From sequence record OK331996.1: DNA of 64,000 bases; one strand, given 5' to 3'. The position numbers and the translations under genes were made by a program. The notes under the pieces are model-generated. The model had not been told where the DNA came from and ran no database searches. It was given only the letters and a program-made list of their open reading frames with translations. Shown piece after piece: positions 13,732 through 60,938 of the stretch (position 1 is the stretch's first letter; every line of letters begins with the position of its first letter). The stretch is from Escherichia phage vB_EcoM-G157lw.

Positions 13732-13744
13732 TTTCACAAAGTTG

Positions 13745-13776
13745 TTTACACGATGATGGAGAAGTGATATTATCTC
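13745..13776 (+). promoter_or_regulatory. T4-type early promoter (GTTTAC -35, TGATATTAT -10)
   Basis: AT-rich upstream, GTTTACA, about 17 nt spacer, -10 like. Confidence 0.5.
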
Positions 13777-13808
13777 CATCAACACATTTATTAATTTAGG
13801 AAAATAAA

Positions 13809-14111: not shown

Positions 14112-14141
14112 GTTTACACAGGGTTTTAGTAGTGATACTAT
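14112..14141 (+). promoter_or_regulatory. early promoter (GTTTAC / GATACTAT)
   Basis: same architecture as the other early promoters in the window. Confidence 0.45.
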
Positions 14142-14169
14142 TACCCTATCAACTACTGAGGAGAATAAA

Positions 14170-14355
14170 ATGAAACGTTGTGAATTAATTCGAAATGTTG
14201 CTATCGCAATTTCTGCTTCCGCTTTTAGTTTTTCAATGTTTGTTGGATTTATATGCGGATTATTAACTACAGCAGAAAATGTATTTTCACTTGTAGTAGC
14301 ATTTTTAATTGGTTTAATTGCTATCGTTATGGATAAAATTTCTAAAGGTGAGTAA
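14170..14355 (+). CDS. small membrane protein
   Basis: ATG 14170 after GGAGAATAAA RBS; 61 aa with hydrophobic core. Confidence 0.55.
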   Translation: MKRCELIRNVAIAISASAFSFSMFVGFICGLLTTAENVFSLVVAFLIGLIAIVMDKISKGE

Positions 14356-15125: not shown

Positions 15126-15198
15126 TGGGAATTAGCCAAGTTGGTAAGGCACTGGATTTTGATTCCAGGATGCAAAGGTTCGAGTCCTTTATTCCCAG
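15126..15198 (+). tRNA. tRNA-Gln (anticodon UUG)
   Basis: manual cloverleaf: acceptor TGGGAAT/ATTCCCA, anticodon loop TTTTGAT, T-loop GGTTCGAGTCC. Confidence 0.8.
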
Positions 15199-15199
15199 C

Positions 15200-15286
15200 G
15201 CGAGAATGGTCAAATTGGTAAAGGCACAGCACTTAAAATGCTGCGGAATGATTTCCTTGTGGGTTCGAGTCCCACTTCTCGCACCA
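15200..15286 (+). tRNA. tRNA-Leu (anticodon UAA), class II
   Basis: acceptor GCGAGAA/TTCTCGC, loop CTTAAAA, long variable arm, encoded CCA. Confidence 0.8.
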
Positions 15287-15291
15287 AATTT

Positions 15292-15365
<74 letters not shown>

Positions 15366-15375
15366 ATTTAATTTA

Positions 15376-15449
15376 CTCCGTGTAGCTCAGTTTGGTAGAG
15401 CGCCTGATTTGGGATCAGGAGGTCCAAGGTTCAAATCCTTGTATGGAGA
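15376..15449 (+). tRNA. tRNA-Pro (anticodon UGG)
   Basis: anticodon stem CCTGA/TCAGG, loop TTTGGGA, T-loop GGTTCAAATCC. Confidence 0.75.
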
Positions 15450-15451
15450 CT

Positions 15452-15541
15452 GGAGGCGTGGCAGAGTGGTTTAATGCACCGGTCTTGAAAACCGGCAGTC
15501 GCTCCGGCGACTCATAGGTTCAAATCCTATCGCCTCCGCCA
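15452..15541 (+). tRNA. tRNA-Ser (anticodon UGA), class II
   Basis: acceptor GGAGGCG/CGCCTCC, loop CTTGAAA, long variable arm, CCA. Confidence 0.8.
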
Positions 15542-15546
15542 GTTTT

Positions 15547-15622
15547 GCTGATTTAGCTCAGTAGGTAGAGCAACTCACTTGTAATGAGAAGGTCGGCGGT
15601 TCGATTCCGTCAATCAGCACCA
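15547..15622 (+). tRNA. tRNA-Thr (anticodon UGU)
   Basis: acceptor GCTGATT/AATCAGC, loop CTTGTAA, CCA. Confidence 0.8.
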
Positions 15623-15623
15623 A

Positions 15624-15698
15624 GGCCCTGTAGCTGGAAGGTTCAAGCAAGCGACTCATAATCGCCAGATGGTGGTTCAATTCCACCCAGGGCCACCA
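15624..15698 (+). tRNA. tRNA with CAU anticodon (Ile2 lysidine-type, or Met)
   Basis: acceptor GGCCCTG/CAGGGCC, loop CTCATAA, CCA; T4 tRNA-Ile position. Confidence 0.75.
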
Positions 15699-15710
15699 AA
15701 TTATGAATTA

Positions 15711-15797
15711 GGGGAGTTATCCCGTAGAGGTAGCGGTGTGGACTGTAAATCCATTGTCATTGCGACTCGGGTGGTTCGACTCCATCACTCCCCACCA
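15711..15797 (+). tRNA. tRNA-Tyr (anticodon GUA), class II
   Basis: acceptor GGGGAGT/ACTCCCC, loop CTGTAAA, long variable arm, CCA. Confidence 0.75.
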
Positions 15798-15801
15798 ATT
15801 T

Positions 15802-15876
15802 GGATGTGTAGCTCAATGGCAGAGCGATCGCCTGTTAAGCGATTGGTTATAGGTTCGAATCCTATCACGTCCGCCA
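15802..15876 (+). tRNA. tRNA-Asn (anticodon GUU)
   Basis: anticodon stem ATCGC/GCGAT, loop CTGTTAA, T-loop GGTTCGAATCC, CCA. Confidence 0.75.
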
Positions 15877-15990
15877 AATTTGTGACAGTTGTCACATTAA
15901 TATCTACTTGACGCGATTATCGGGGTTGAACTGATCACTCTTCTCTTAATTTCGTGTGAAGACATCTTGATTGTTGGAGTAGGTATTAAT

Positions 15991-16066
15991 GTGGCCGTAG
16001 TTCAGTTGGTAGAACTCGAGATTGTGATTCTCGTAGTCATGGGTTCGACTCCCATCGGTCACCCCA
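15991..16066 (+). tRNA. tRNA-His (anticodon GUG)
   Basis: anticodon stem CGAGA/TCTCG, loop TTGTGAT, T-loop GGTTCGACTCC, CCA. Confidence 0.75.
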
Positions 16067-16070
16067 ATTA

Positions 16071-16146
16071 CGGGGCATAGCTCAGAAGGAAGAGCAAGGA
16101 CCTTCTAAGTCCTAGGTCGTAGGTTCGATCCCTACTGCCTCGACCA
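16071..16146 (+). tRNA. tRNA-Arg (anticodon UCU)
   Basis: anticodon stem AGGAC/GTCCT, loop CTTCTAA, T-loop GGTTCGATCC, CCA. Confidence 0.8.
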
Positions 16147-16519: not shown

Positions 16520-16826
16520 GGGTCGCTACCGGTAAGTCGTCGGACTGATGTTCCCTGAGTAAGGAATTGTGTTAATAAATCTTTATGATTTGTTGATGCC
16601 CTCTTACATCACAGCTGAAACGGCGCACCGAATTATCGATTCGAGGAAATATCTTTGCCGTAAGCCGAGTAGCGTTTTTGACGGAACGTTCGGATATGGT
16701 CGAGATATGGCCTTTTAAAAATATTGAGTAGCGTCAACTGCTTGATAACCGGGTTCGAATCCCGGCGTTTCGTACAAACACTTGCCTTAGCAGGTGGAAC
16801 CCCGACAAGGTTGCCGCAAGGCTTAG
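16520..16826 (+). ncRNA. ORF-free structured region, candidate small stable RNA(s) comparable to T4 species 1/2 RNAs
   Basis: about 310 nt without ORF; T-arm-like CCGGGTTCGAATCCCGG; ends at strong terminator. Confidence 0.35.
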
Positions 16827-16852
16827 CCCCAGCCGAAAGGTTGGGGCTTTTT
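16827..16852 (+). terminator. intrinsic terminator, GNRA-loop hairpin
   Basis: CCCCAGCC gaaa GGTTGGGG then CTTTTT. Confidence 0.7.
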
Positions 16853-16854
16853 AG

Positions 16855-16862
16855 TATAAATA
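16855..16862 (+). promoter_or_regulatory. late promoter TATAAATA
   Basis: exact TATAAATA 37 nt upstream of ATG 16899. Confidence 0.55.
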
Positions 16863-16898: not shown

Positions 16899-17372
16899 AT
16901 GAAATCATATACTCAATTTTTAAATGAAGCGGTGTTAAATGAAGCATCTAGCACCGAAATTCAAGCTGTCGCAAAAGCAGCCATTGCAGCGGGTAAATAT
17001 TCTTACAAAGATGCTTCTGATGAATCACGATTCCAGTTCGCACGCGACATGAAAGCGGAAGGATTTACGGGAAATGCAGTTAGTATGGCCTGGAAAAGTT
17101 TAGTTGCTACTGGCGCTGCTTTTGCAAAGGCTTCGGGTAAACCTGCTCCTAAAGCAGATCCTAAAGTCGCACAAGAGAAAAATATTGTTAAAGGAATTAT
17201 CTCCAAATATGAAGCTATCCTTAAAGAGCTTTTAGTAATCAAAACTGAAGGCCAAAAACTAGCTCGTGCTTATAGTTTCAAAGATAACCCACATGCTCAC
17301 TCTCTTGAGTATGTTGAAGACATCCAAAAAATTATTAAAGACCGCATTTGGTCTGCTAAACAAATCAAATAA
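16899..17372 (+). CDS. internal-protein-like protein with capsid targeting leader
   Basis: 157 aa, N-terminus MKSYTQFLNEA resembles CTS of T4 IP proteins; late promoter upstream. Confidence 0.65.
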   Translation: MKSYTQFLNEAVLNEASSTEIQAVAKAAIAAGKYSYKDASDESRFQFARDMKAEGFTGNAVSMAWKSLVATGAAFAKASGKPAPKADPKVAQEKNIVKGIISKYEAILKELLVIKTEGQKLARAYSFKDNPHAHSLEYVEDIQKIIKDRIWSAKQIK

Positions 17373-17381
17373 CATTCTTAG

Positions 17382-17407
17382 CCCTAGCCGAAAGGTTGGG
17401 GCTTTTT
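17382..17407 (+). terminator. intrinsic terminator (near copy of 16827 hairpin)
   Basis: CCCTAGCC gaaa GGTTGGGG then CTTTTT. Confidence 0.7.
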
Positions 17408-17540
17408 GGTATCTAGGCCTTTCCAGGCCTCTCTAGACATCATTTAGTTTCTACCCTTTATAATATATTATCCTATCCTTTGATTTCCCCTCCCTGCCCT
17501 AGAATTCCCCAAAACTTTTTAAAAATTTTTTCACAAAACT

Positions 17541-17570
17541 GTTTACATCCTTGTCCTTCCATGGTACTAT
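17541..17570 (+). promoter_or_regulatory. early promoter with conserved leader (PeSL-like cassette)
   Basis: GTTTAC, TACTAT, then conserved ACAACTATCAACTACTGATACAG leader. Confidence 0.55.
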
Positions 17571-17613
17571 ACAACTATCAACTACTGATACAGAAAACAA
17601 CTTGGAGAATGAA

Positions 17614-17877
17614 ATGGATAATTACGGTGAACTGTTCAACTTCTTTATGAAATGTGTTTCAGAAGATTTCGGTCGTACGGTGAATGATATTAAAGTTATC
17701 GGTCCTGATCATCCGATGTTTGAAACCTATGCAGTAATGGGTAATGAAGATGGTCAGTGGTATACTGTAAAGGTTGTGATTAACATGTTCACTGCTGAAG
17801 GTTATGTTAAACTGTCTTCTAAAGTTTACCATGATAACGACGAAATCGCAGAAGAATATTTCAATAATATGAAATAA
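17614..17877 (+). CDS. hypothetical acidic protein
   Basis: ATG 17614 after GGAG; track start 17551 is a TTG extension; 87 aa. Confidence 0.6.
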   Translation: MDNYGELFNFFMKCVSEDFGRTVNDIKVIGPDHPMFETYAVMGNEDGQWYTVKVVINMFTAEGYVKLSSKVYHDNDEIAEEYFNNMK

Positions 17878-17933
17878 GTTTACATAGGCTCATGATTGAG
17901 ATATTATGAGCCTATAATTTGAGGAAAACTGTT

Positions 17934-18452
17934 ATGTCTCTTTATACCGAACTGAATGAAACTTCCGAAAAATCTTTTGATGGTATCTTATCAATAATGC
18001 AAAAGCAGGTATTAGAAGAGCTTAGTGAAGCCGCAAGCAATGGGTACAAAGCTTGTCGAGTTCAAAGCCCACATCGCCGCATGTATGAACGCCCTCTTAT
18101 TAATTGGCTAGAAAGCGAAGGTCTTACGGTTAAGATTTGCCCTGCTAAATTTGATGTTCCACGTATTCTTAATATTTACTGGGATAAACCGGTTGAGAAA
18201 AGTGACACTTGGGTTGTTAATGTAAAAACATGCGATAATGGATGCTCACTTGAGGTGTCTGCTGTAATTAAAGGCACCCATGGTGAAAAATCGTGGGGTT
18301 GGCCTGGTAAAGATAAAGAAATCGTGTTAAGTGTAAAAGCTACTAGTATTAGTACTCCTATAGCTAAAAGCATTATCACTGCCGCTGTTGAAGAAGCTGA
18401 ACGAATTTGTAAAATTAAAAATAGTTTACATCTCTTAAGTAGCATGATATAA
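17934..18452 (+). CDS. hypothetical protein
   Basis: ATG 17934 after GAGGAAAA; 172 aa. Confidence 0.6.
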   Translation: MSLYTELNETSEKSFDGILSIMQKQVLEELSEAASNGYKACRVQSPHRRMYERPLINWLESEGLTVKICPAKFDVPRILNIYWDKPVEKSDTWVVNVKTCDNGCSLEVSAVIKGTHGEKSWGWPGKDKEIVLSVKATSISTPIAKSIITAAVEEAERICKIKNSLHLLSSMI

Positions 18453-18495
18453 TTCTTCTGCAGATTTTAATTTCTAATCAACCTAAGGAAATACT

Positions 18496-24608: not shown

Positions 24609-24646
24609 GTTTACTTTTCCTCTTGACTGTGGTATAATTTTTCTAT
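24609..24646 (+). promoter_or_regulatory. early promoter GTTTAC ... TGGTATAAT
   Basis: consensus-like -35 and extended -10, 20 nt before regB RBS. Confidence 0.6.
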
Positions 24647-24665
24647 CAGTTAAGAGGAGAATAAC

Positions 24666-25127
24666 ATGACTATCAATACAGAAGTTTTTATCCGTCGAAA
24701 TAAGCTTCGTCGTCACTTTGAGTCGGAGTTTCGTCAAATTAACAATGAGATTCGTGAGGCATCAAAAGCAGCAGGGGTCTCATCGTTTCATCTAAAATAT
24801 TCTCAGCATCTTCTTGATCGTGCAATTCAACGGGAGATTGATGAGACATATGTTTTTGAATTATTCCATAAAATAAAAGATCATGTTTTAGAAGTTAATG
24901 AATTCCTGAGTATGCCTCCGCGTCCTGACATTGACGAGGATTTTATTGATGGGGTTGAATATCGTCCTGGACGTTTAGAAATCACAGATGGAAATCTTTG
25001 GCTTGGATTTACAGTTTGTAAGCCTAATGAGAAGTTCAAAAACCCGTCACTTCAATGCAGGATGGCAATTATCAACAGTCGTCGTTTACCAGGAAAGGCT
25101 TCTAAAGCAGTAATTAAAACTCAATGA
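24666..25127 (+). CDS. regB: RegB-like sequence-specific endoribonuclease
   Basis: 153 aa MTINTEVFIRRNKLRRHFESEF...; size and position of T4 regB. Confidence 0.65.
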   Translation: MTINTEVFIRRNKLRRHFESEFRQINNEIREASKAAGVSSFHLKYSQHLLDRAIQREIDETYVFELFHKIKDHVLEVNEFLSMPPRPDIDEDFIDGVEYRPGRLEITDGNLWLGFTVCKPNEKFKNPSLQCRMAIINSRRLPGKASKAVIKTQ

Positions 25128-27050: not shown

Positions 27051-27232
27051 GCCTAAGCAAAGAACAAAAAGATAAATTGTTTGAGCTTATCCATGAACTT
27101 CTAGATGAGCATGCAGAAGCAAACACCTTTTATGATGAATACGGCCCGCTATCTCCCGAACAGCAGGAAGAATTTGCTGATCGGTTTGATAAGAAAGAAA
27201 ATGAATTAATAGCTTATGTGAATACGCTTTAA
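27047..27232 (+). CDS. hypothetical acidic small protein (GTG start)
   Basis: 61 aa; GTGA overlap with previous stop. Confidence 0.4.
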   Translation: MSLSKEQKDKLFELIHELLDEHAEANTFYDEYGPLSPEQQEEFADRFDKKENELIAYVNTL

Positions 27233-28771: not shown

Positions 28772-28795
28772 AGTCTCCTTCGGGAGACTTTTTCA
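28772..28795 (+). terminator. intrinsic terminator, UUCG loop
   Basis: AGTCTCC ttcg GGAGACT then TTTTT. Confidence 0.7.
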
Positions 28796-28803
28796 TTTTA
28801 CCA

Positions 28804-28833
28804 GTTTACTTTCAATTTGAGCTGTGATACTAT
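28804..28833 (+). promoter_or_regulatory. early promoter (GTTTAC / GATACTAT), PeSL-like
   Basis: follows terminator hairpin; shares TATACAAC leader start. Confidence 0.5.
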
Positions 28834-28861
28834 ACAACCATCGGATAAAGAGGAGAACATC

Positions 28862-29050
28862 ATGAAAATTGAAGCACTCAATCAAGAAGGAAATATCTAC
28901 GTCATCATTAATGGTGATTTTTTCGTCGACATGGATGAAGTTACTAGTGAAGAACTTGTAGAACTTCTTAAGAAACGTTATGATATGTGTGATGAAGCTG
29001 CAACTCATATGGCGTGTGCAATATTCTCTCTTTCATATGTGGTGGAATAA
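28862..29050 (+). CDS. hypothetical small acidic protein
   Basis: ATG 28862 after AAAGAGGAG; 62 aa. Confidence 0.5.
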
Positions 29051-32340: not shown

Positions 32341-32342
32341 TA

Positions 32343-32366
32343 GGGAGCCTTCGGGCTCCCTTTTTT
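32343..32366 (+). terminator. intrinsic terminator, UUCG loop
   Basis: GGGAGCC ttcg GGCTCCC then TTTTTT. Confidence 0.75.
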
Positions 32367-32390
32367 ATTTCAAAAATTTTTCACAAAACG

Positions 32391-32420
32391 GTTTACAAGC
32401 ATAAAGCTTTATGGTACTAT
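32391..32420 (+). promoter_or_regulatory. early promoter with conserved leader (PeSL-like cassette)
   Basis: GTTTAC, TACTAT, conserved ACAACTATCAACTGATAC leader. Confidence 0.55.
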
Positions 32421-32454
32421 ACAACTATCAACTGATACGGATTTGGAGAATAAA

Positions 32455-33423
32455 ATGAAAACTGTAACTATCAATAAGGGTATCTACTTCGGTAAAGAAA
32501 TCTCTGGAACTTTTGAGCTCTTAGGCGAATGGTTCCCGGATAATGCTCCGGTAGATGCACAAGGAGATGGTAAAGTTTTTGTTGAAATTGACGGTAAACG
32601 TCGCGGTGTTTGGGTTTACAAATCAGACATTTCATATGATGGTGTAAAAGTTGAAGAAGTTAAAGAATCGTATGAAGATATGAAAACCCGCATTAATAAA
32701 AGATTTAATGTTATGGGAATGATGACGAATGGTATTATTAACGGAAACATTCGTTCATTAATTATTTCTGGTGCGGCGGGTATTGGTAAAACGTATTCTT
32801 TAGATAAAGCTTTAAATAAAGCAAATGATATTGGATACATTGAATATAAAAGCATTAATGGTAAAATCTCTGGTATTGGTCTTTATGAACAGCTTTGGAA
32901 TAATCGTGAAGAGAATTCTGTCCTTTTGATTGATGATGTGGATGTTTTCTCTGATATGGACATTCTTAATCTTCTGAAAGCTGCTCTGGACACTGGAGAG
33001 ACCCGTAAAGTCTGCTGGAGCACTGCATCTTCTTACTTAGAAGAAAAAGGAATTGAGCGTGAGTTTGAATTTAAAGGAACGATTGTTTTTATCACAAACG
33101 TTGACATTGACCGCGAATTAGACCGTGGTACTAAACTTGCTCCACATTTACAAGCATTAGTGTCCCGCTCAGTTTATTTGGATTTGGGTGTTCACACTAA
33201 TGAAGAAATTATGGTCAGGGTTGAAGATGTTATTCTTTCAACTGACATGATGCAAAAGCGCGGTCTTTCTGATGAAGAAACTTATAAAGCATTATCATGG
33301 ATGAAAGTCAATGTTAATCGTTTACGCAATGTTTCACTGCGTACTGCTCTTTATCTTGCTGACTTTATTATGACCGACAAAAACGGTTGGGAAGAAATCG
33401 CTGAAACGGTATTATTAAAATGA
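32455..33423 (+). CDS. AAA+ family ATPase
   Basis: ATG 32455 (track start is TTG); Walker A GAAGIGKT, Walker B LLIDDVD, sensor-1-like FITN. Confidence 0.65.
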   Translation: MKTVTINKGIYFGKEISGTFELLGEWFPDNAPVDAQGDGKVFVEIDGKRRGVWVYKSDISYDGVKVEEVKESYEDMKTRINKRFNVMGMMTNGIINGNIRSLIISGAAGIGKTYSLDKALNKANDIGYIEYKSINGKISGIGLYEQLWNNREENSVLLIDDVDVFSDMDILNLLKAALDTGETRKVCWSTASSYLEEKGIEREFEFKGTIVFITNVDIDRELDRGTKLAPHLQALVSRSVYLDLGVHTNEEIMVRVEDVILSTDMMQKRGLSDEETYKALSWMKVNVNRLRNVSLRTALYLADFIMTDKNGWEEIAETVLLK

Positions 33424-34138
33424 AAAAATATTTTACTATCTATAAAACTGAAATATTAAATTTAAAGACAGGTATTAAGAAATACTATTATGGTCGACAT
33501 ATAACTAATAACATCAATGATTCGTATGTTGGTAGTGGAAATTATATAGAACGTGTAAAAGTGTCAAATGACCACATATTATCAAAAACGGTTTTAGAAG
33601 TTTTTGATAATTATGATAAAATGGTACAAGCTGAAATATTATATATCATGGCAGGTAAATTGAAATATGGAAAAACTGTGTTAACCTGTCATACGGGGGT
33701 GAAGGAGGAAAGGTTGCAGATGAAACTAGGATAAAATGCAAAAAGCATTCTATAAATTTATGGAAAAATCCTAATCATATACAGCATATGAAGAAAAAGA
33801 TGAAAGAGGTCACATCCACGCCGGAAGCTAAATTAAACACTTCAATAAAAACTTCGCAACGATATAAGGACCCAGTTTTTGTTAGAAAAGTTAGTAATAT
33901 TATTAAAAAGAAACTAAACAATCCTGCAGTAAAAGAAAAGCATATTAATGGAATTAAAGCTGCAAAGCGTTCTCATTTAACTATATGGCAGTATGAAGAT
34001 GAATTATTCGAGCTTTGGAAAGAAACTAAATATGGATGGAGAAAATTTACAAAGGAAGCTATAAAACACGGATATCCAAATGAACCGTATCGTAGTATGG
34101 TATCAACTTTTCAGAAAAGACATTTAGAAGAATCCTAA
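33420..34138 (+). pseudogene. GIY-YIG (seg-like) homing endonuclease interrupted by a frameshift
   Basis: ORF 33420-33734 has GIY-YIG-like N-terminus; downstream frame stays open back to about 33683 and overlaps it; shift near G-run 33694-33698. Confidence 0.45.
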
Positions 34139-34220: not shown

Positions 34221-34523
34221 ATGTTATACTCAAAGGCTCGTGAAATTTACGAAACTAAAATTAAAGAAGCAGTATTTCAGTTCGCAACAACAATGCGATG
34301 GACAAATGATTGGGAGTATTCAAAAAATCATAAGAAGCCTTTGGTGACAAGAAAGGCTCATATGTTAGTGTTAATAGACCGTGAGCAGATTAAAGCCCGA
34401 GAAGCCCTCCAGAATCATAAAAAGGCTGCCTTTGAATGGTTTATGGATAACACTGCTCCTGAGACTAAGAAAGCAGTGAGCGCTTGGTTCAGTGGAAAAA
34501 ATTGTGAAAGAAGTTTCTTTTAG
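34221..34523 (+). CDS. hypothetical protein
   Basis: ATGs at 34209/34218/34221; GGAGG RBS favours 34221. Confidence 0.5.
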   Translation: MLYSKAREIYETKIKEAVFQFATTMRWTNDWEYSKNHKKPLVTRKAHMLVLIDREQIKAREALQNHKKAAFEWFMDNTAPETKKAVSAWFSGKNCERSFF

Positions 34524-34525
34524 TT

Positions 34526-34555
34526 GTTTACAAGACCGTTCCTCTGTGGTACTAT
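34526..34555 (+). promoter_or_regulatory. early promoter with conserved leader
   Basis: GTTTAC, TACTAT, ACAACTATCAACTAC. Confidence 0.5.
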
Positions 34556-34583
34556 ACAACTATCAACTACGGAGGAACAGAAA

Positions 34584-35111
34584 ATGAACGCTAAAGATAT
34601 TTTCAACCTGGTAAATTATAACGATGGTAAATTTAAATCTGAAGCTCAAAGCAAGTTCTTTAATGATGTCTCAATCGGTGGTGAAATCACTGTTGATGGA
34701 GGACAAATTTACAAATCCCGTTGGAATTGGATCGTTATTATCGATGAGATTGGTATTGTAGAAATTTACAAGAATACGAATAAAAATCGTACATTACACT
34801 GGTCTCGTGATACTAACGAACAGTACAAAAAGGATAAAGCATCTAAATTATCTCGTGTAACTCAAGAAGATATTGAGTTCATCAAGAAAGATATTTTGAT
34901 GTATGATAACTTAATTGCTGAAGAGCAAGCTGTTATTGATAAATTTGACGAGATTAAAGCTTCTCGTGAAATTCCTGATTTTATGAAAGAATCAGTAAAT
35001 GAACGATACACTCTCATTTCAGAGCGTATTGAAACTTACAAAAAGCAAAGAGCTGAACGCCAGAATACTCTTCGGAAGTTTGAAGAACGGTTAAAGACGG
35101 TACTCGCATAA
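34584..35111 (+). CDS. hypothetical protein
   Basis: ATG 34584 after GGAGGAACAG; 175 aa. Confidence 0.6.
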   Translation: MNAKDIFNLVNYNDGKFKSEAQSKFFNDVSIGGEITVDGGQIYKSRWNWIVIIDEIGIVEIYKNTNKNRTLHWSRDTNEQYKKDKASKLSRVTQEDIEFIKKDILMYDNLIAEEQAVIDKFDEIKASREIPDFMKESVNERYTLISERIETYKKQRAERQNTLRKFEERLKTVLA

Positions 35112-36478: not shown

Positions 36479-37498
36479 ATGAAAACTCGTTCTCAAATTG
36501 AAGATATGGTTCGTAATGCCAGCTATACTCGTGATGTTATGACATTTTTGTGCCAAAATAATTTAGACCCTGATAGAGTTAATAGTTCCATTCACTTTAA
36601 GTATATGAATAGCAGTGAATGGTTACGTCATTTTAGTAAAGCGGGATATATTACACAAATGACTGCTCGTGAGCAGCTCACCGATTTCTGTAAAACTATT
36701 GATTATAAAAATCCTCTATTTGTTCAAGGTGTTGGTCAGAGTAAGGTTGATTTATCATCTGGATTTTTCAATCCCAATCATTATCGTATTGAATGGAGAT
36801 TTATTGCTCTATTCCGTAAACAGTTAAAGCAAATTTTGTCGACAGCTAGTCGATTAAAAGGTTCTGACATTAACTTAAAGAACCTGAAATTTGATGGTTA
36901 TACTCTTCAGATGGAAGTAAGACCATTAAAAGAAAATAATAGAACTGCACGAATTAGCTTTAAACCTAATACAAAAAATTCTCTTTCAATTTGTGAATGC
37001 CTTAAATCACAGTTGACAGAAGCATTTAAGTATATGGATGTTGTTGCCGCTGTTCAGTCTAAGATTTTACCTCGTTTTGAACGATTTAAGTTAGATACAA
37101 CATCATATGAACTTGATATGATCGTTTCATTTAAATACGATTTTTTGAGAAAGGACGAAGTCCCGCAAGAGAAAAAGCAGGAAGTACAAGATAACTTAAA
37201 TTTATCCAATTACTTATCAAACGATCCTAAATTTTGGATGTATAGTTCAGGTAATAATGATGCATGGAAATTCAATAAAGTGAATTTTCTTCCTGTTGAA
37301 AATCCGAGTCTTAAACCTGTTGAAAAATGGCACGCGGATGCGATTGAGAAGTCTATCAAGGCAGTAGATGATGAACTCGTTAAAGCGACCAATGAAGTGC
37401 TAGAAGCTGAAAAGGCGTTAGAACAAGCTCAGTCAAGGGTTCAAAATCTGACAAAGCAACGTTCTAAACTGAACAATGCATTAAATGCACTGAACTAG
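36479..37498 (+). CDS. hypothetical protein with C-terminal coiled coil (array member 2)
   Basis: 339 aa, N-terminus MKTRSQIEDM. Confidence 0.65.
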   Translation: MKTRSQIEDMVRNASYTRDVMTFLCQNNLDPDRVNSSIHFKYMNSSEWLRHFSKAGYITQMTAREQLTDFCKTIDYKNPLFVQGVGQSKVDLSSGFFNPNHYRIEWRFIALFRKQLKQILSTASRLKGSDINLKNLKFDGYTLQMEVRPLKENNRTARISFKPNTKNSLSICECLKSQLTEAFKYMDVVAAVQSKILPRFERFKLDTTSYELDMIVSFKYDFLRKDEVPQEKKQEVQDNLNLSNYLSNDPKFWMYSSGNNDAWKFNKVNFLPVENPSLKPVEKWHADAIEKSIKAVDDELVKATNEVLEAEKALEQAQSRVQNLTKQRSKLNNALNALN

Positions 37499-50137: not shown

Positions 50138-50278
50138 ATGATATTTCTTGGATATGTGATACTTTTTCTTGCATTTTATCTATTCACTAGAGCATGTTGT
50201 GTTGGGTTCTTTAGCACACCAGATGGGTTTATTTCAATAATTTTATTTTGCATTTCAATGACGGTTCTTGATATATGA
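50138..50278 (+). CDS. small hydrophobic membrane peptide
   Basis: 46 aa after GGAG; ATGA-coupled to downstream gene. Confidence 0.4.
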   Translation: MIFLGYVILFLAFYLFTRACCVGFFSTPDGFISIILFCISMTVLDI

Positions 50279-50898
50279 AAAAATATATAACTTATTTAAC
50301 AATATATAGTGGAGATAAACTTCCTCCTTTTTATATTGGATCTACGTCTTTAGATAGGCATTTAGCTGGATATCATGGTTCAGTTTTATCTAAAAAGTAT
50401 AAGAAAATTTATAATAAAGAGCTTTCAGATAATCCTCACTTATTTGATTCATGCATTTTAGCTGAATTTGATACGCGTGAAGAAGCTATTAAATGCGAGT
50501 TATATTATCAACGATTGCATGATGCAGTTAAAAATCCATTATTCTTTAATATGTCATATGCTGCTCCAAAAGGTTCATTTGGAAGAGATAATAAAGGACA
50601 AAATCATCCATTATATGGTTCTCATAATTGTAAAGGAAATATACATTCACATGATCCATTAACAGGAAAATCTGCCTTTTTGCCTTATATTCCAGAAGGT
50701 TATGTAAAAGGAAGGTCAAATAAATTTAAAGCTTCATCACATAATAAAGGTAAAAAATGGTATAATAACGGAGTTAAGCAAATGTTATGTCATGAACCTC
50801 CTGGTCCTGAATGGACAAAAGGAAAAATTAAAGAACTGGTTTCAAAAGCAGCTAAATTAGGATGGAAAAGACACCATGAAAATACTAAACTTGGGTGA
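50275..50898 (+). CDS. GIY-YIG-like putative homing endonuclease
   Basis: 207 aa; TIYSGDKLPPFYIGST motif; His/Lys-rich C-terminus; overlaps gene 47 start by 23 nt. Confidence 0.5.
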   Translation: MKKYITYLTIYSGDKLPPFYIGSTSLDRHLAGYHGSVLSKKYKKIYNKELSDNPHLFDSCILAEFDTREEAIKCELYYQRLHDAVKNPLFFNMSYAAPKGSFGRDNKGQNHPLYGSHNCKGNIHSHDPLTGKSAFLPYIPEGYVKGRSNKFKASSHNKGKKWYNNGVKQMLCHEPPGPEWTKGKIKELVSKAAKLGWKRHHENTKLG

Positions 50899-57430: not shown

Positions 57431-60127
57431 ATGAAAGAATTTTATATCTCTATCGAAACAGTCGGAAATAACATTGTTGAACGTTATATTGATGAAAACG
57501 GAAAGGAACGTACTCGTGAAGTAGAATATCTTCCAACTATGTTTAGGCATTGTAAGGAAGAGTCAAAGTACAAAGACATCTATGGTAAAAACTGCGCTCC
57601 TCAAAAATTTCCATCAATGAAAGATGCTCGAGATTGGATGAAACGAATGGAAGACATCGGTCTCGAAGCTCTCGGTATGAACGATTTTAAACTCGCTTAT
57701 ATCAGTGATACATACGGTTCAGAAATTGTTTATGACCGAAAATTTGTTCGTGTAGCTAACTGTGACATTGAGGTTACTGGTGATAAATTTCCTGACCCAA
57801 TGAAAGCAGAATATGAAATTGATGCTATCACTCATTACGATTCAATTGATGATCGTTTTTATGTTTTCGACCTTTTGAATTCAATGTATGGTTCAGTATC
57901 AAAATGGGATGCAAAGTTAGCTGCTAAGCTTGACTGTGAAGGTGGTGATGAAGTTCCTCAAGAAATTCTTGACCGAGTAATTTATATGCCATTCGATAAT
58001 GAGCGTGATATGCTCATGGAATATATCAATCTCTGGGAACAGAAACGACCTGCCATTTTTACTGGTTGGAATATTGAGGGATTTGACGTTCCGTATATCA
58101 TGAATCGCGTTAAAATGGTTCTCGGTGAACGTAGTATGAAACGCTTCTCTCCAATCGGTCGAGTAAAATCTAAACTTATCCAAAATATGTACGGTAGCAA
58201 AGAAATTTATTCTATTGATGGCGTATCTATTCTTGATTATTTAGATTTGTATAAGAAATTCGCATTTACTAATTTGCCGTCATTCTCTTTGGAATCAGTT
58301 GCTCAGCATGAAACCAAAAAAGGTAAATTACCATACGACGGTCCTATTAATAAACTTCGTGAGACTAATCATCAACGATACATTAGTTATAACATCATTG
58401 ACGTAGAATCAGTTCAAGCAATTGATAAAATTCGCGGGTTTATCGATCTAGTTTTAAGTATGTCTTATTACGCTAAAATGCCTTTTTCTGGTGTAATGAG
58501 TCCTATTAAAACTTGGGATGCTATTATTTTTAACTCATTGAAAGGTGAACATAAGGTTATTCCTCAACAAGGTTCGCACGTTAAACAAAGTTTTCCGGGT
58601 GCATTTGTATTTGAACCTAAACCAATTGCTCGTCGATATATTATGAGTTTTGACTTGACGTCTCTATATCCTAGCATTATTCGTCAGGTTAACATTAGTC
58701 CTGAGACTATTCGTGGACAATTTAAAGTTCATCCAATTCATGAATATATCGCAGGAACAGCTCCTAAACCGAGTGATGAATATTCTTGTTCTCCGAATGG
58801 ATGGATGTATGATAAGCATCAAGAAGGTATCATTCCAAAGGAAATCGCTAAAGTATTTTTCCAGCGTAAAGACTGGAAAAAGAAAATGTTCGCTGAAGAA
58901 ATGAATGCCGAAGCTATTAAAAAGATTATTATGAAAGGCGCAGGGTCTTGTTCAACTAAACCGGAAGTTGAACGATATGTTAAGTTCAGTGATGATTTCT
59001 TAAATGAACTATCGAATTATACTGAATCTGTTCTCAATAGTTTGATTGAAGAATGTGAAAAAGCGGCTACACTTGCTAATACAAATCAGCTGAACCGTAA
59101 AATTCTTATTAACAGCCTTTACGGTGCTCTTGGTAATATTCATTTCCGTTACTATGATTTGCGAAATGCTACTGCTATCACAATTTTTGGTCAAGTTGGT
59201 ATTCAGTGGATTGCTCGTAAAATTAATGAGTATCTGAATAAAGTGTGCGGAACTAATGGTGAAGATTTCATCGCAGCAGGTGATACTGATTCGGTATATG
59301 TTTGTGTAGATAAAGTTATTGAAAAAGTTGGTCTTGACCGATTCAAAGAGCAGAACGATTTAGTTGAATTCATGAATCAGTTCGGTAAGAAAAAGATGGA
59401 ACCTATGATTGATGTTGCATATCGTGAGTTATGTGATTATATGAATAACCGCGAGCATCTGATGCATATGGACCGTGAAGCTATTTCTTGCCCTCCACTT
59501 GGTTCAAAGGGCGTTGGTGGATTTTGGAAAGCGAAAAAGCGTTATGCTCTGAACGTTTATGATATGGAAGATAAGCGATTTGCTGAACCGCATCTAAAAA
59601 TCATGGGTATGGAAACTCAGCAAAGTTCAACGCCTAAAGCGGTTCAAGAAGCTCTTGAAGAAAGTATTCGTCGTATTCTTCAAGAAGGCGAAGAGTCTGT
59701 TCAAGAATATTATAAGAACTTTGAGAAAGAATATCGTCAACTTGACTATAAAGTTATTGCTGAAGTAAAAACTGCGAACGATATAGCGAAATATGATGAT
59801 AAAGGTTGGCCAGGATTTAAATGTCCATTCCATATTCGTGGTGTGTTAACTTATCGTCGAGCTGTTAGTGGTCTGGGTGTAGCTCCAATTTTGGATGGAA
59901 ATAAAGTAATGGTTCTTCCATTGCGTGAAGGAAACCCATTTGGTGACAAATGCATTGCTTGGCCGTCGGGCACAGAACTTCCAAAAGAAATTCGTTCTGA
60001 CGTACTGTCTTGGATTGACTACTCAACTTTGTTCCAAAAATCGTTTGTTAAACCGCTTGCGGGTATGTGTGAATCGGCTGGTATGGACTATGAGGAAAAA
60101 GCTTCGTTAGACTTCCTGTTTGGCTGA
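57431..60127 (+). CDS. 43: DNA polymerase gp43 (family B)
   Basis: 898 aa; exo and pol motifs incl DTDS. Confidence 0.95.
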   Translation: MKEFYISIETVGNNIVERYIDENGKERTREVEYLPTMFRHCKEESKYKDIYGKNCAPQKFPSMKDARDWMKRMEDIGLEALGMNDFKLAYISDTYGSEIVYDRKFVRVANCDIEVTGDKFPDPMKAEYEIDAITHYDSIDDRFYVFDLLNSMYGSVSKWDAKLAAKLDCEGGDEVPQEILDRVIYMPFDNERDMLMEYINLWEQKRPAIFTGWNIEGFDVPYIMNRVKMVLGERSMKRFSPIGRVKSKLIQNMYGSKEIYSIDGVSILDYLDLYKKFAFTNLPSFSLESVAQHETKKGKLPYDGPINKLRETNHQRYISYNIIDVESVQAIDKIRGFIDLVLSMSYYAKMPFSGVMSPIKTWDAIIFNSLKGEHKVIPQQGSHVKQSFPGAFVFEPKPIARRYIMSFDLTSLYPSIIRQVNISPETIRGQFKVHPIHEYIAGTAPKPSDEYSCSPNGWMYDKHQEGIIPKEIAKVFFQRKDWKKKMFAEEMNAEAIKKIIMKGAGSCSTKPEVERYVKFSDDFLNELSNYTESVLNSLIEECEKAATLANTNQLNRKILINSLYGALGNIHFRYYDLRNATAITIFGQVGIQWIARKINEYLNKVCGTNGEDFIAAGDTDSVYVCVDKVIEKVGLDRFKEQNDLVEFMNQFGKKKMEPMIDVAYRELCDYMNNREHLMHMDREAISCPPLGSKGVGGFWKAKKRYALNVYDMEDKRFAEPHLKIMGMETQQSSTPKAVQEALEESIRRILQEGEESVQEYYKNFEKEYRQLDYKVIAEVKTANDIAKYDDKGWPGFKCPFHIRGVLTYRRAVSGLGVAPILDGNKVMVLPLREGNPFGDKCIAWPSGTELPKEIRSDVLSWIDYSTLFQKSFVKPLAGMCESAGMDYEEKASLDFLFG

Positions 60128-60140
60128 TAGAATAAATCTA

Positions 60141-60161
60141 GGGACCTCCGGGTCCCTTTTT
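60141..60161 (+). terminator. intrinsic terminator
   Basis: GGGACC tccg GGTCCC then TTTTT. Confidence 0.75.
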
Positions 60162-60243
60162 CATACAAGTAATATAAATCTATACTTATGAAAAACAGAT
60201 GATTCTGGACATTTAGAATTCCCTAAAAAATTTTCACAAAACT

Positions 60244-60273
60244 GTTTACAAGACTGTTCCTCTGCGGTACTAT
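60244..60273 (+). promoter_or_regulatory. early promoter with conserved leader (PeSL-like cassette)
   Basis: GTTTAC, TACTAT, ACAACTATCAACTACTGATACAG. Confidence 0.55.
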
Positions 60274-60310
60274 ACAACTATCAACTACTGATACAGATTT
60301 GGAGAATAAA

Positions 60311-60547
60311 ATGAAAATTGTTATGGGATGCTTAGCAGTTTGTTTAGTTGCATTAGCAGCAGTTCCATTTGTTAGTGTTGAAAATGATACTCAACCTATG
60401 ATTGAATCTAGCACCGTTATTCACACTAATGGTAAAATATCAGTTAAAATTGATGATAATCTTCATGTGAATACAAATGGATCTTTAGGTGTACAAATAG
60501 GTAATACCTGCATAAGCACTACTGGAGTAATTACTACTTGCATTTGA
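60311..60547 (+). CDS. small secreted protein
   Basis: ATG 60311 after GGAG (track start is TTG); signal peptide MKIVMGCLAVCLVALAA. Confidence 0.55.
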   Translation: MKIVMGCLAVCLVALAAVPFVSVENDTQPMIESSTVIHTNGKISVKIDDNLHVNTNGSLGVQIGNTCISTTGVITTCI

Positions 60548-60557
60548 GGAAATTATT

Positions 60558-60938
60558 ATGAAAATCGCTATTTTGGTTATTGCATTAGGTCTTACTGGTT
60601 GTGTAGCTCAAGGACCGGTAGTAAATCAGTCTGATGTAGGAAAAATTGTAAATTGTTCAAGTAAATTTTATAATCCTAATGTCAAGTGTTATAAAGAAGC
60701 TCCAAAGCAAACAGTAGAACAAATGCAGGCGAATTTTGACGAAGCTATTCGTCCAGATGAATCTGCTCAAGCATATCGTAATTCGGATGTAATTACACGC
60801 GAAGAAAAAATTGAAAACTACTGCGCCGAGCTTTGGGCTAATTGGGCTAATAATTACCAATGGCGTACCGGTAAAAATGCTCCGATGGAGTATGTAGTGA
60901 ATTCTTATAATTCATGCGTAAAAAATTTAACTAAGTGA
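60558..60938 (+). CDS. lipoprotein
   Basis: 126 aa; signal peptide with lipobox LTGC; Cys-rich mature part. Confidence 0.65.
   Translation: MKIAILVIALGLTGCVAQGPVVNQSDVGKIVNCSSKFYNPNVKCYKEAPKQTVEQMQANFDEAIRPDESAQAYRNSDVITREEKIENYCAELWANWANNYQWRTGKNAPMEYVVNSYNSCVKNLTK

Follow-up and report, generated by a model that had tools for sequence, protein, structure and literature searches.

Here we report that the repeated promoter cassettes in the early region of Escherichia phage vB_EcoM-G157lw most likely mark the boundaries of early transcription units. The copies appear to be kept alike by selection together with ectopic recombination, and crossovers within them would occasionally lead to genes being gained, lost or exchanged; we put the probability of this reading at roughly 0.85. 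The module is real but already described, both among the T4 early promoters and as the PeSLs of Arbiol 2010 and Comeau 2014. Its promoter, RegB site and tetraloop terminators are long-established T4 features, and it brings no new element or mechanism.

The window, by which we mean the whole stretch of DNA analysed (64,000 nt of record OK331996.1), is a Tequatrovirus (T4-like) segment. A 3-kb query around the cassette at 60141-60313 matched 644 phage records, of which Escherichia phage ECML-363 was the best at 99.9% identity. By annotation transfer from ECML-363 and T4, baseplate genes occupy the minus strand up to about 10.3 kb, and the plus-strand early/middle region follows in the order gene 4, tRNA cluster, e.x, regB, tk, rI, mobD.x, nrdC.x, 55, a-gt, 47-43, imm, 42, uvsX. 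The plus strand is the early-transcription strand of the window.

A repeat family of early promoters

Six cassettes are considered here, all on the plus strand: copy A (17380-17616, ahead of the e.8 homolog), B (32342-32457, ahead of nrdC.10), C (34526-34586, ahead of nrdC.8), D (60140-60313, ahead of orf78) and two partial copies, E (14112-14172, ahead of trna.4 in an internal-protein locus) and F (28772-28864, ahead of mobD.5). A first-pass annotation of the same DNA had placed them at 17382-17616, 32343-32457, 34526-34586, 60141-60313, 14112-14172 and 28772-28864, and the elements it described are present at all six, with the variation in hairpin and leader set out below. There are four exact matches to the 21-mer GGTACTATACAACTATCAACT, all on the plus strand (17563, 32413, 34548 and 60266), and none in 100 shuffled sequences, even with three mismatches allowed. 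An unbiased repeat search put the module first among the direct repeats of the early region, as the largest family there, with 73-nt copies at six positions (14093, 17522, 32372, 34507, 45579 and 60225). What the four full copies (A, B, C and D) share is more than a generic -35 and -10, as had been supposed at first pass: exact tracts of 21-32 nt join them, the 32-nt tract being common to A and D, and spacers are held in common as well.

A generic sigma-70 scan was not enriched (90 sites found against 78 expected from shuffles) and, being uninformative, gave way to the T4-specific pattern GTTTAC-N18-TAnnAT. Across the whole window this pattern has 15 sites on the plus strand and none on the minus strand, against 0.12 expected. 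Nine sites had not been listed before; seven directly precede gene starts (13744, 17878, 18424, 21915, 24609, 37498 and 45598), while two (41207 and 46037) are apparently within coding sequence. The gap of about 17 nt first given between GTTTAC and TACTAT needs a small correction, as 18 nt separate these two motifs and 17 nt separate the sigma-70 hexamers.

All six copies combine a -35 GTTTAC with a -10 TAnnAT at the 17-nt hexamer spacing. The extended -10 element (TGn) is found in A, B, C, E and F and is missing from D, which has CGG in place of the TGG of its T4 ortholog. An UP-like tract, AAAWWTTTTCACAAAAC, lies upstream of the -35 in A, B and D and in variant form in E; the corresponding stretch is coding sequence in C and merely the terminator T-run in F. 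This is the anatomy of T4 early promoters, which are “UP/-35/TGn/-10” promoters with extra consensus regions (Hinton 2010, PMC2988021) and carry GTTTAC at -36 to -31 (Nolan et al. 2006, PMC1524935). The likeness extends to the UP-like A/T tract, both hexamers, TGn, the additional consensus regions and the placement of every site on the early strand. Two differences are that the four full copies form a sub-family with a common -10-proximal spacer end, start-site region and leader of 15-23 nt, and that copy D has no TGn.

Orthology with T4 points the same way. Near-identical cassettes stand in T4 at the orthologous imm.1, e.8, nrdC.10, nrdC.8, trna.4 and mobD.5 (T4 positions 27080, 70696, 55384, 53943, 73572 and 58780), and additional copies with the same leader lie ahead of motA and upstream of ndd.6. 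On this orthology and on their anatomy, the cassettes are predicted to be active promoters. From promoter geometry, transcription should start in the conserved CTATC about 6-8 nt past the -10; a literature search found no dataset of T4 transcription start sites.

An exact-match scan of IMG/VR for GGTACTATACAACTATCAACT gave 21 more instances in 8 contigs, too few for population statistics. Taking IMG/VR contigs, T4 and the window together, eight different genes have the 21-mer ahead of their start (e.8, an 87-aa ORF, imm.1, orf78, a 37-aa ORF, nrdC.10, nrdC.8 and motA). Given these eight positions and the T4 copies, the module is a genome-wide family and not something local to the window.

Hairpins, leaders and the putative RegB site

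Copy D, at 60141-60313, lies between gene 43 (the DNA polymerase gene, which ends at 60127) and the ORF that follows, in a gap of 183 nt. After gene 43, the terminator scan places a plus-strand hairpin (60140-60162; AGGGACC-UCCG-GGUCCCU followed by UUUUU; -13.9 kcal/mol, z -3.25). Alignment and the repeat family identify the UP-like A/T-rich tract TAGAATTCCCTAAAAAATTTTCACAAAACT (60214-60243), which is common to copy A and to the T4 imm.1 and e.8 promoters. The promoter core follows at 60244-60273, with the -35 GTTTAC at 60244-60249, an 18-nt spacer and the -10 TACTAT at 60268-60273, and then the start-site region and leader ACAACTATCAACTACTGATACAGATTT (60274-60300), predicted to be unstructured (-0.6 kcal/mol, z +1.2). 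The Shine-Dalgarno sequence is held within GGAGAATAAAA (60301-60313), which equals the RegB/S1 11-nt consensus and overlaps the ATG at 60311-60313. Behind it lies orf78 (60311-60550, plus strand), encoding 78 aa with an N-terminal hydrophobic segment (phrog_4189).

Copy A has the same order on the plus strand: hairpin (17380-17403), UP tract (17522-17540), -35 (17541-17546), -10 (17565-17570), leader (17571-17603), GGAGAATGAAA (17604-17614) and ATG (17614-17616), with its T4 ortholog at 70696. Its terminator hairpin has a second copy upstream (16822-16857, plus strand; fold -20.6 kcal/mol), a 36-nt direct repeat 94% identical to 17377-17412. Copy B is made up of a C(UUCG)G hairpin (32342-32361), -35 (32391-32396), -10 (32415-32420), GGAGAATAAAA (32445-32455) and ATG (32455-32457). 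Copy C is shorter and has no GC hairpin: its -35 (34526-34531) comes immediately after the nrdC.9 stop codon (34521-34523), and is followed by the -10 (34550-34555), GGAGG (34571-34575) and ATG (34584-34586); the segment GTTCCTC of its spacer and GAGGAAC of the Shine-Dalgarno region are complementary. Partial copy E, also without a hairpin, consists of -35 (14112-14117), -10 (14136-14141), leader TACCCTATCAACTACTGA, GGAGAATAAAA (14160-14170) and ATG (14170-14172), and partial copy F of a C(UUCG)G hairpin (28772-28789), -35 (28804-28809), -10 (28828-28833), GGAG (28852-28855) and ATG (28862-28864).

The hairpins of A, B, D and F (17380-17403, 32342-32361, 60140-60157 and 28772-28789) fold at -10.8 to -18.3 kcal/mol with z of about -3.3 to -3.9, are each followed by 5-6 U, and rank among the strongest plus-strand terminator-like sites in three scans. 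They have the sequence of rho-independent terminators and are predicted to act as such. The GC hairpin with T-run that the first-pass annotation had made part of the module is accordingly present in four of the six copies, the hairpin at 34526 being weak and AT-rich (-3.8 kcal/mol) and that at 14112 absent. The loops are C(UUCG)G in B and F, GAAA in A and UCCG in D. Stable C(UUCG)G tetraloop hairpins were reportedly noted in T4 intercistronic regions by Tuerk et al. in 1988. The copies resemble those hairpins, and intrinsic terminators generally, in the C(UUCG)G loops of B and F and in the U-run after each hairpin, and differ in the UCCG of D.

The leader is less uniform than “near-identical”, as it had been called. 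In its full 23 nt, ACAACTATCAACTACTGATACAG is exact only at 17571-17593 and 60274-60296 (copies A and D). The copy with its -35 at 32391 lacks 3 nt and has an A>G change, the copy at 34526 matches only the first 15 nt, and those at 14112 and 28804 match less. All six leaders are predicted to be unstructured (0 to -2.1 kcal/mol, z 0.06 to 1.4). A structured RNA in the leader was considered and rejected: the candidate 5' hairpin AUCA/UGAU reaches just -0.6 kcal/mol, z is at least 0 in all six, and the hairpin is not kept in B and C. Rfam matches in the window are 11 tRNAs only, with no family for the cassette leaders.

The target of RegB with S1 is an 11-nt site, GGAGAAUAAAA at its T4 optimum and GGAGRAYARAA in degenerate form, which must be single-stranded (Durand et al. 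2006, PMC1702504). The optimum is present exactly at 60301-60311 (D), 32445-32455 (B) and 14160-14170 (E) and at 10 of 11 positions at 17604-17614 (A). These sites sit at the 3' end of the cassette, in RNA predicted to be single-stranded, and overlap the early-gene Shine-Dalgarno, whose GGAG lies within the 11-mer. Copies C and F differ in matching GGAGRAYARAA poorly. The leader does end in GGAG and ATG, as the first-pass annotation had it; the RegB/S1 site at that very place had gone unrecognised. The product of regB (24666-25127, plus strand; a site-specific RNase by ECML-363 and T4 annotation, with its own early promoter at 24609) would be the enzyme that cleaves the cassette leaders at GGAG.

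Taken as a working unit, the cassette would operate as follows. Where present, the GC hairpin and U-run would terminate or attenuate upstream transcripts, and host sigma-70 RNA polymerase would then initiate at a very strong early promoter (UP tract, GTTTAC, 17-nt spacer usually with TGn, TACTAT). The transcript would start about 7 nt past the -10, in the conserved CTATC, and carry an unstructured leader of 28-43 nt with its Shine-Dalgarno GGAG inside the RegB/S1 site GGAGAAUAAAA. Because of that overlap, the mRNA is expected to be translated at once and later switched off by the phage RegB RNase. For annotation, cassettes of this kind may be read as marking the starts and ends of early transcription units in T4-like genomes, and as predicting which early mRNAs are inactivated by RegB.

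Probable exchange between copies

Two processes could keep paralogous copies alike: selection on all of the parts, and ectopic homologous recombination or gene conversion. Selection acting without the second would mean functional convergence, each copy being independently favoured as an optimal promoter, ribosome-binding site and RegB site with no role for recombination. We regard this as improbable, although slightly less so than the other alternatives. It accords with conservation being strongest in the functional blocks (UP tract, -35, TGn/-10, CTATC and GGAGAAUAAAA) and with the majority of the flanked genes being conserved. The spacers are where it fits poorly.

Promoter spacers have no known sequence requirement. 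Copies C and D nevertheless differ at only 2 of 18 spacer positions, and the T4 nrdC.10 and frd.3 promoters have an identical 18-nt spacer within about 70 nt of near-identity. Between orthologs the spacers are mosaic. At the imm.1/orf78 locus, two of the genomes compared with the window (L017 and L020) match it in full upstream (81/81 positions) and almost in full over orf78 (235-236/240), but agree with it at no more than 13/18 spacer positions, so that a divergent spacer lies inside flanks of 98-100% identity. Across seven genomes the halves of the spacer at this locus are variously paired, each being either e.8-type (ATCCC; GTTCTTCCAT) or nrdC.8-type (AAGAC; GTTCCTCTG). The T4 cassette upstream of ndd.6 is likewise hard to explain by convergence: it equals the imm.1 cassette over 58 nt with one mismatch, and the match takes in the first 12 nt of the imm.1 coding sequence, leaving an 8-codon remnant ORF. 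From these mosaic spacers and the displaced imm.1 start, together with the hairpin repeat around ORF157 and a swap breaking in two leaders (both described below), we infer that the copies recombine with each other.

More distant genomes separate the parts of the cassette. At nrdC.10, a Mosigvirus and a Moonvirus keep the architecture, the hairpin and the GGAGAATAAAATG ending, as convergence would also lead one to expect, while the mid-leader differs; its deep conservation was sought at nrdC.10 in these two genera and not found. Dhakavirus Bp7 has the hairpin alone at nrdC.10, with no promoter. Exact mid-leader identity is therefore a within-genus feature, and homogenisation between copies appears to fit it better than deep constraint does.

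The same data bear on a second alternative, in which the mid-leader ACAACTATCAACTACTGATACAG is a specific cis-acting element, perhaps an operator at which some factor shuts off early promoters, or an RNA site recognised by a factor for translation or stability. If so, the start-site and mid-leader segment (GGTACTAT-ACAACTATCAACTAC[TGATACAG]) would mark a sub-class of early promoters as a recognition element, for instance a shut-off operator or a site on early mRNA for S1 or another factor, and promoter strength and gene conversion would not suffice to explain it. In seven genomes the 21-mer does not vary before any of the eight gene starts, CTATCAACTAC also precedes nrdC.8 in a Mosigvirus, and the shut-off of T4 early transcription is still unexplained (PMC2988021). 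The invariance is partly circular, however, as this set of gene starts was chosen by exact match to the 21-mer. The leaders are unstructured and match no Rfam family, the mid-leader is missing from most other early promoters of the window, copies B and C have deletions within it, and it is not conserved at nrdC.10 in the Mosigvirus or the Moonvirus. We consider such an element, and the sub-class that it would define, quite unlikely.

Gene turnover at the cassettes

Under the favoured reading of recombining unit boundaries, the common tracts of 20-60 nt would act as portable homology for gene insertion, loss and swap, as in the published PeSL model. Comparing the window with T4, we counted 19 insertion, deletion or replacement events, four of which abut an early-promoter cassette. 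In the first, ORF157 (16899-17372), missing from T4, lies between the 36-nt hairpin direct repeats, where T4 has a single hairpin; convergence alone would not predict such an arrangement. The second is the replacement of e.7 by ORF172 or the reverse, in which window and T4 cease to align just past the start-site region of the promoter at 17878 and align again from within the e.6 promoter's leader; these breakpoints match the -10-to-ATG crossovers reported for PeSL mini-circles. The third is an internal-protein swap after the 21915 promoter. In the fourth, orf78 lies between the copy D leader and imm.1, and the indel begins 11 nt past the cassette, bounded by an 8-nt repeat, ATGAAAAT (60311-60318 and 60558-60565).

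Five of the 38 event boundaries fall at cassettes, which make up 4.1% of the region. This points to a modest enrichment that is not decisive, because cassettes and viable indels are both limited to intergenic DNA. Copies B and C stand 2.1 kb apart, and loss of the DNA between them was not evident in the database genomes, where nrdC.10 and nrdC.8 are each found at 95% identity or more in about 500 records. Homing-endonuclease genes or introns have a part in at least 7 of the 19 events (segC, segB, mobD, I-TevII, mobC, mobB, segA and a GIY-YIG-like ORF at 50275-50898). Arbiol 2010 (PMC2839356) speculated on a protein targeting the stem-loop, and homing-endonuclease genes are abundant in the region, but that the cassettes are the ends or targets of a dedicated mobile element, through site-specific recombination or endonuclease homing, is highly improbable: no recombinase or endonuclease gene is consistently beside the copies, the junctions vary by event (hairpin, leader, start codon), and the homing-endonuclease indels are far from the cassettes.

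The first-pass annotation had taken the genes behind the copies for the likeliest acquired cargo and proposed a presence/absence comparison with T4-like genomes. That comparison bears the idea out for orf78 only, one of six downstream genes. It is found in 321 records, against about 500 Tequatrovirus records that contain the flanks of the 60141-60313 locus, and is missing from T4, in which imm.1 comes directly after the cassette. The other genes are conserved or syntenic: e.8 (behind A) is in 567 records, 504 of them at 95% identity or more; nrdC.10 (behind B) is in 1111, from many genera including Klebsiella, Acinetobacter, Aeromonas and Vibrio phages; and nrdC.8 (behind C) is in 741. Among Tequatrovirus records these three are close to universal (about 500 of about 500), two of them reach other genera, and trna.4 and mobD.5, behind the partial copies E and F, are syntenic in T4. 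ORF157, in 494 records (368 at 90% identity or more), is the only other polymorphic gene adjoining a listed copy, and it lies upstream of copy A, not behind it. Pfam and PHROGs assign no function to the flanked genes, the closest being sub-threshold matches of nrdC.10 to AAA/NTPase and of ORF207 to GIY-YIG.

Several observations weigh against reading the copies as unit boundaries of the PeSL kind: D has lost TGn, C and E are without a real terminator, the link with gene turnover is modest, no B-to-C deletion is evident in the database genomes, and the genes behind the copies are for the most part conserved.

As for classification, the PeSLs of the T-even pair PST/T4 run from a stem-loop just upstream through an AT-rich stretch and TTTACW-N17-TAYWAT to a Shine-Dalgarno and the start codon (Comeau, Arbiol & Krisch 2014, PMC4122927). 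All six copies have TTTACW-N17-TAYWAT followed by a Shine-Dalgarno and a downstream start codon, and the assignment to PeSLs made at first pass is correct by this sequence definition. The copies share with PeSLs (Arbiol et al. 2010, PMC2839356; PMC4122927) the composite of stem-loop, AT tract, early promoter, Shine-Dalgarno and start codon, a location among non-essential early genes, and some indel or replacement junctions inside the cassette, from -10 to ATG, like published mini-circle junctions. Copies C, with a weak stem-loop, and E, with none, correspond to the “degraded/half” PeSLs of those authors. Nothing essential is different, although the association with gene turnover is weak here (1/6 downstream genes polymorphic) and one copy follows a core gene, gene 43. 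As far as their description in PMC2839356 goes, T-even internal-protein loci have early promoters and weaker AT-rich stem-loops flanking swappable small genes (Repoila et al. 1994); the two such loci here contain copy E together with the promoters at 13744 and 21915. Lambdoid morons are comparable as self-contained units of promoter, gene and terminator, and differ in being a temperate-phage feature not built on a repeated, recombining promoter family.

For the evolution of such modules, the window offers clean comparative examples of PeSLs in the mosaic spacers, the gene flanked by a duplicated hairpin and the swap breaking in leaders. It also indicates a limit of the PeSL idea, as the genes flanked by cassettes are mostly stable and the majority of differences from T4 are found elsewhere, many of them at homing-endonuclease genes.

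Inverted repeats of at least 7 bp extend across the -10 box at 4 of the 15 promoter sites in the window and at 7 of 32 in T4, against 2-4% in permuted pairs; they correspond to PeSL sub-classes already described for phi1/RB49.

A probable cassette transfer and a shared spacer in T4

Upstream of ndd.6, T4 carries a cassette of the PeSL (promoter-early stem-loop) family that is the same as the imm.1 cassette over 58 nt, with one mismatch (NC_000866, 167086-166996, locus L008 at about 36996-37086, compared with 27080-26990, locus L004). Included in the match are the opening 12 nt of imm.1 coding sequence, and an eight-codon remnant ORF, MKIAEIEL, results; other genomes have an 87-aa ORF at this site instead. 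Judged from this alignment, the cassette upstream of ndd.6 is the footprint of a past cassette transfer.

The T4 promoters of nrdC.10 and frd.3 (55384 and 146875) lie 91 kb apart and have in common an 18-nt spacer, as well as about 70 nt around it. The same spacer is found in copy B, the window's cassette in front of nrdC.10, where it contains a perfect 12-nt palindrome, ATAAAGCTTTAT (32401-32412).

Gene content of the window compared with T4

Two copies of a 36-nt terminator hairpin, 94% identical and 555 nt apart as direct repeats (16822-16857 and 17377-17412), enclose ORF157 (16899-17372), a member of phrog_2280, a family of unknown function; T4 has one hairpin and lacks ORF157. Immediately 3' of the first hairpin stands a perfect T4 late-promoter consensus, TATAAATA (16855-16862), and because of its position ORF157, though within the early region, may be expressed late.

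At 17929-18479 an unrelated 172-aa ORF (phrog_6869) occupies the place of T4 e.7. At the 17878 promoter, homology to T4 breaks just 3' of the start-site region; it returns in the e.6 leader, so the next promoter, at 18424, was swapped together with the gene. Compared with T4, where segB lies here, the tRNA region (15126-16143) is rearranged; Rfam gives 11 clustered tRNA matches in the window, including a borderline one of 30.2 bits, and eight tRNAs are annotated in T4 and nine in ECML-363, the closest record.

Between 47.1 and 47 we identified a 207-aa ORF (50275-50898) that is probably a homing endonuclease, as suggested by a sub-threshold Pfam match to a GIY-YIG nuclease (E 3e-4, 21.4 bits; cut-off 22.6 bits). 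Two further ORFs of 104 and 116 aa lie between nrdC.10 and nrdC.9 (33402-34135), and a Pfam search with them returned no match. Since a seg-like endonuclease is annotated beside nrdC.10 in AR1, they may be what is left of a homing endonuclease gene. All three ORFs are absent from T4 and have no annotation in ECML-363.

Stem-loops, the -10 box and late-promoter motifs

At some early promoters, an inverted repeat of 7 bp or more has one arm in the spacer and the other just 3' of the -10 box, which falls within the loop. Such repeats occur at four of the 15 early-promoter sites on the window's plus strand (13744-13790, 17878-17920, 24609-24660 and 34526-34582) and at 7 of 32 T4 sites, as against 2-4% in permuted pairs. 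Complementarity is kept and the arm sequences vary between loci and genera, and the arrangement matches the PeSL sub-class with a stem-loop overlapping the -10 (Arbiol 2010).

A second repeat family of 22 nt, D3, consists of AAGGGC-UUCG-GCCCUU tetraloop hairpins 3' of several genes (19091, 46455, 50094, 55405 and 57352); no early promoter was found downstream of the hairpin at any of these five window sites.

In copy D, the cassette between gene 43 and orf78, CGG (60265-60267) replaces the TGG seen in T4 and in the other copies, and the extended -10 is therefore lost. Between the gene 43 terminator and this early promoter lies a near-consensus late-promoter motif, TATAAATC (60173-60180).
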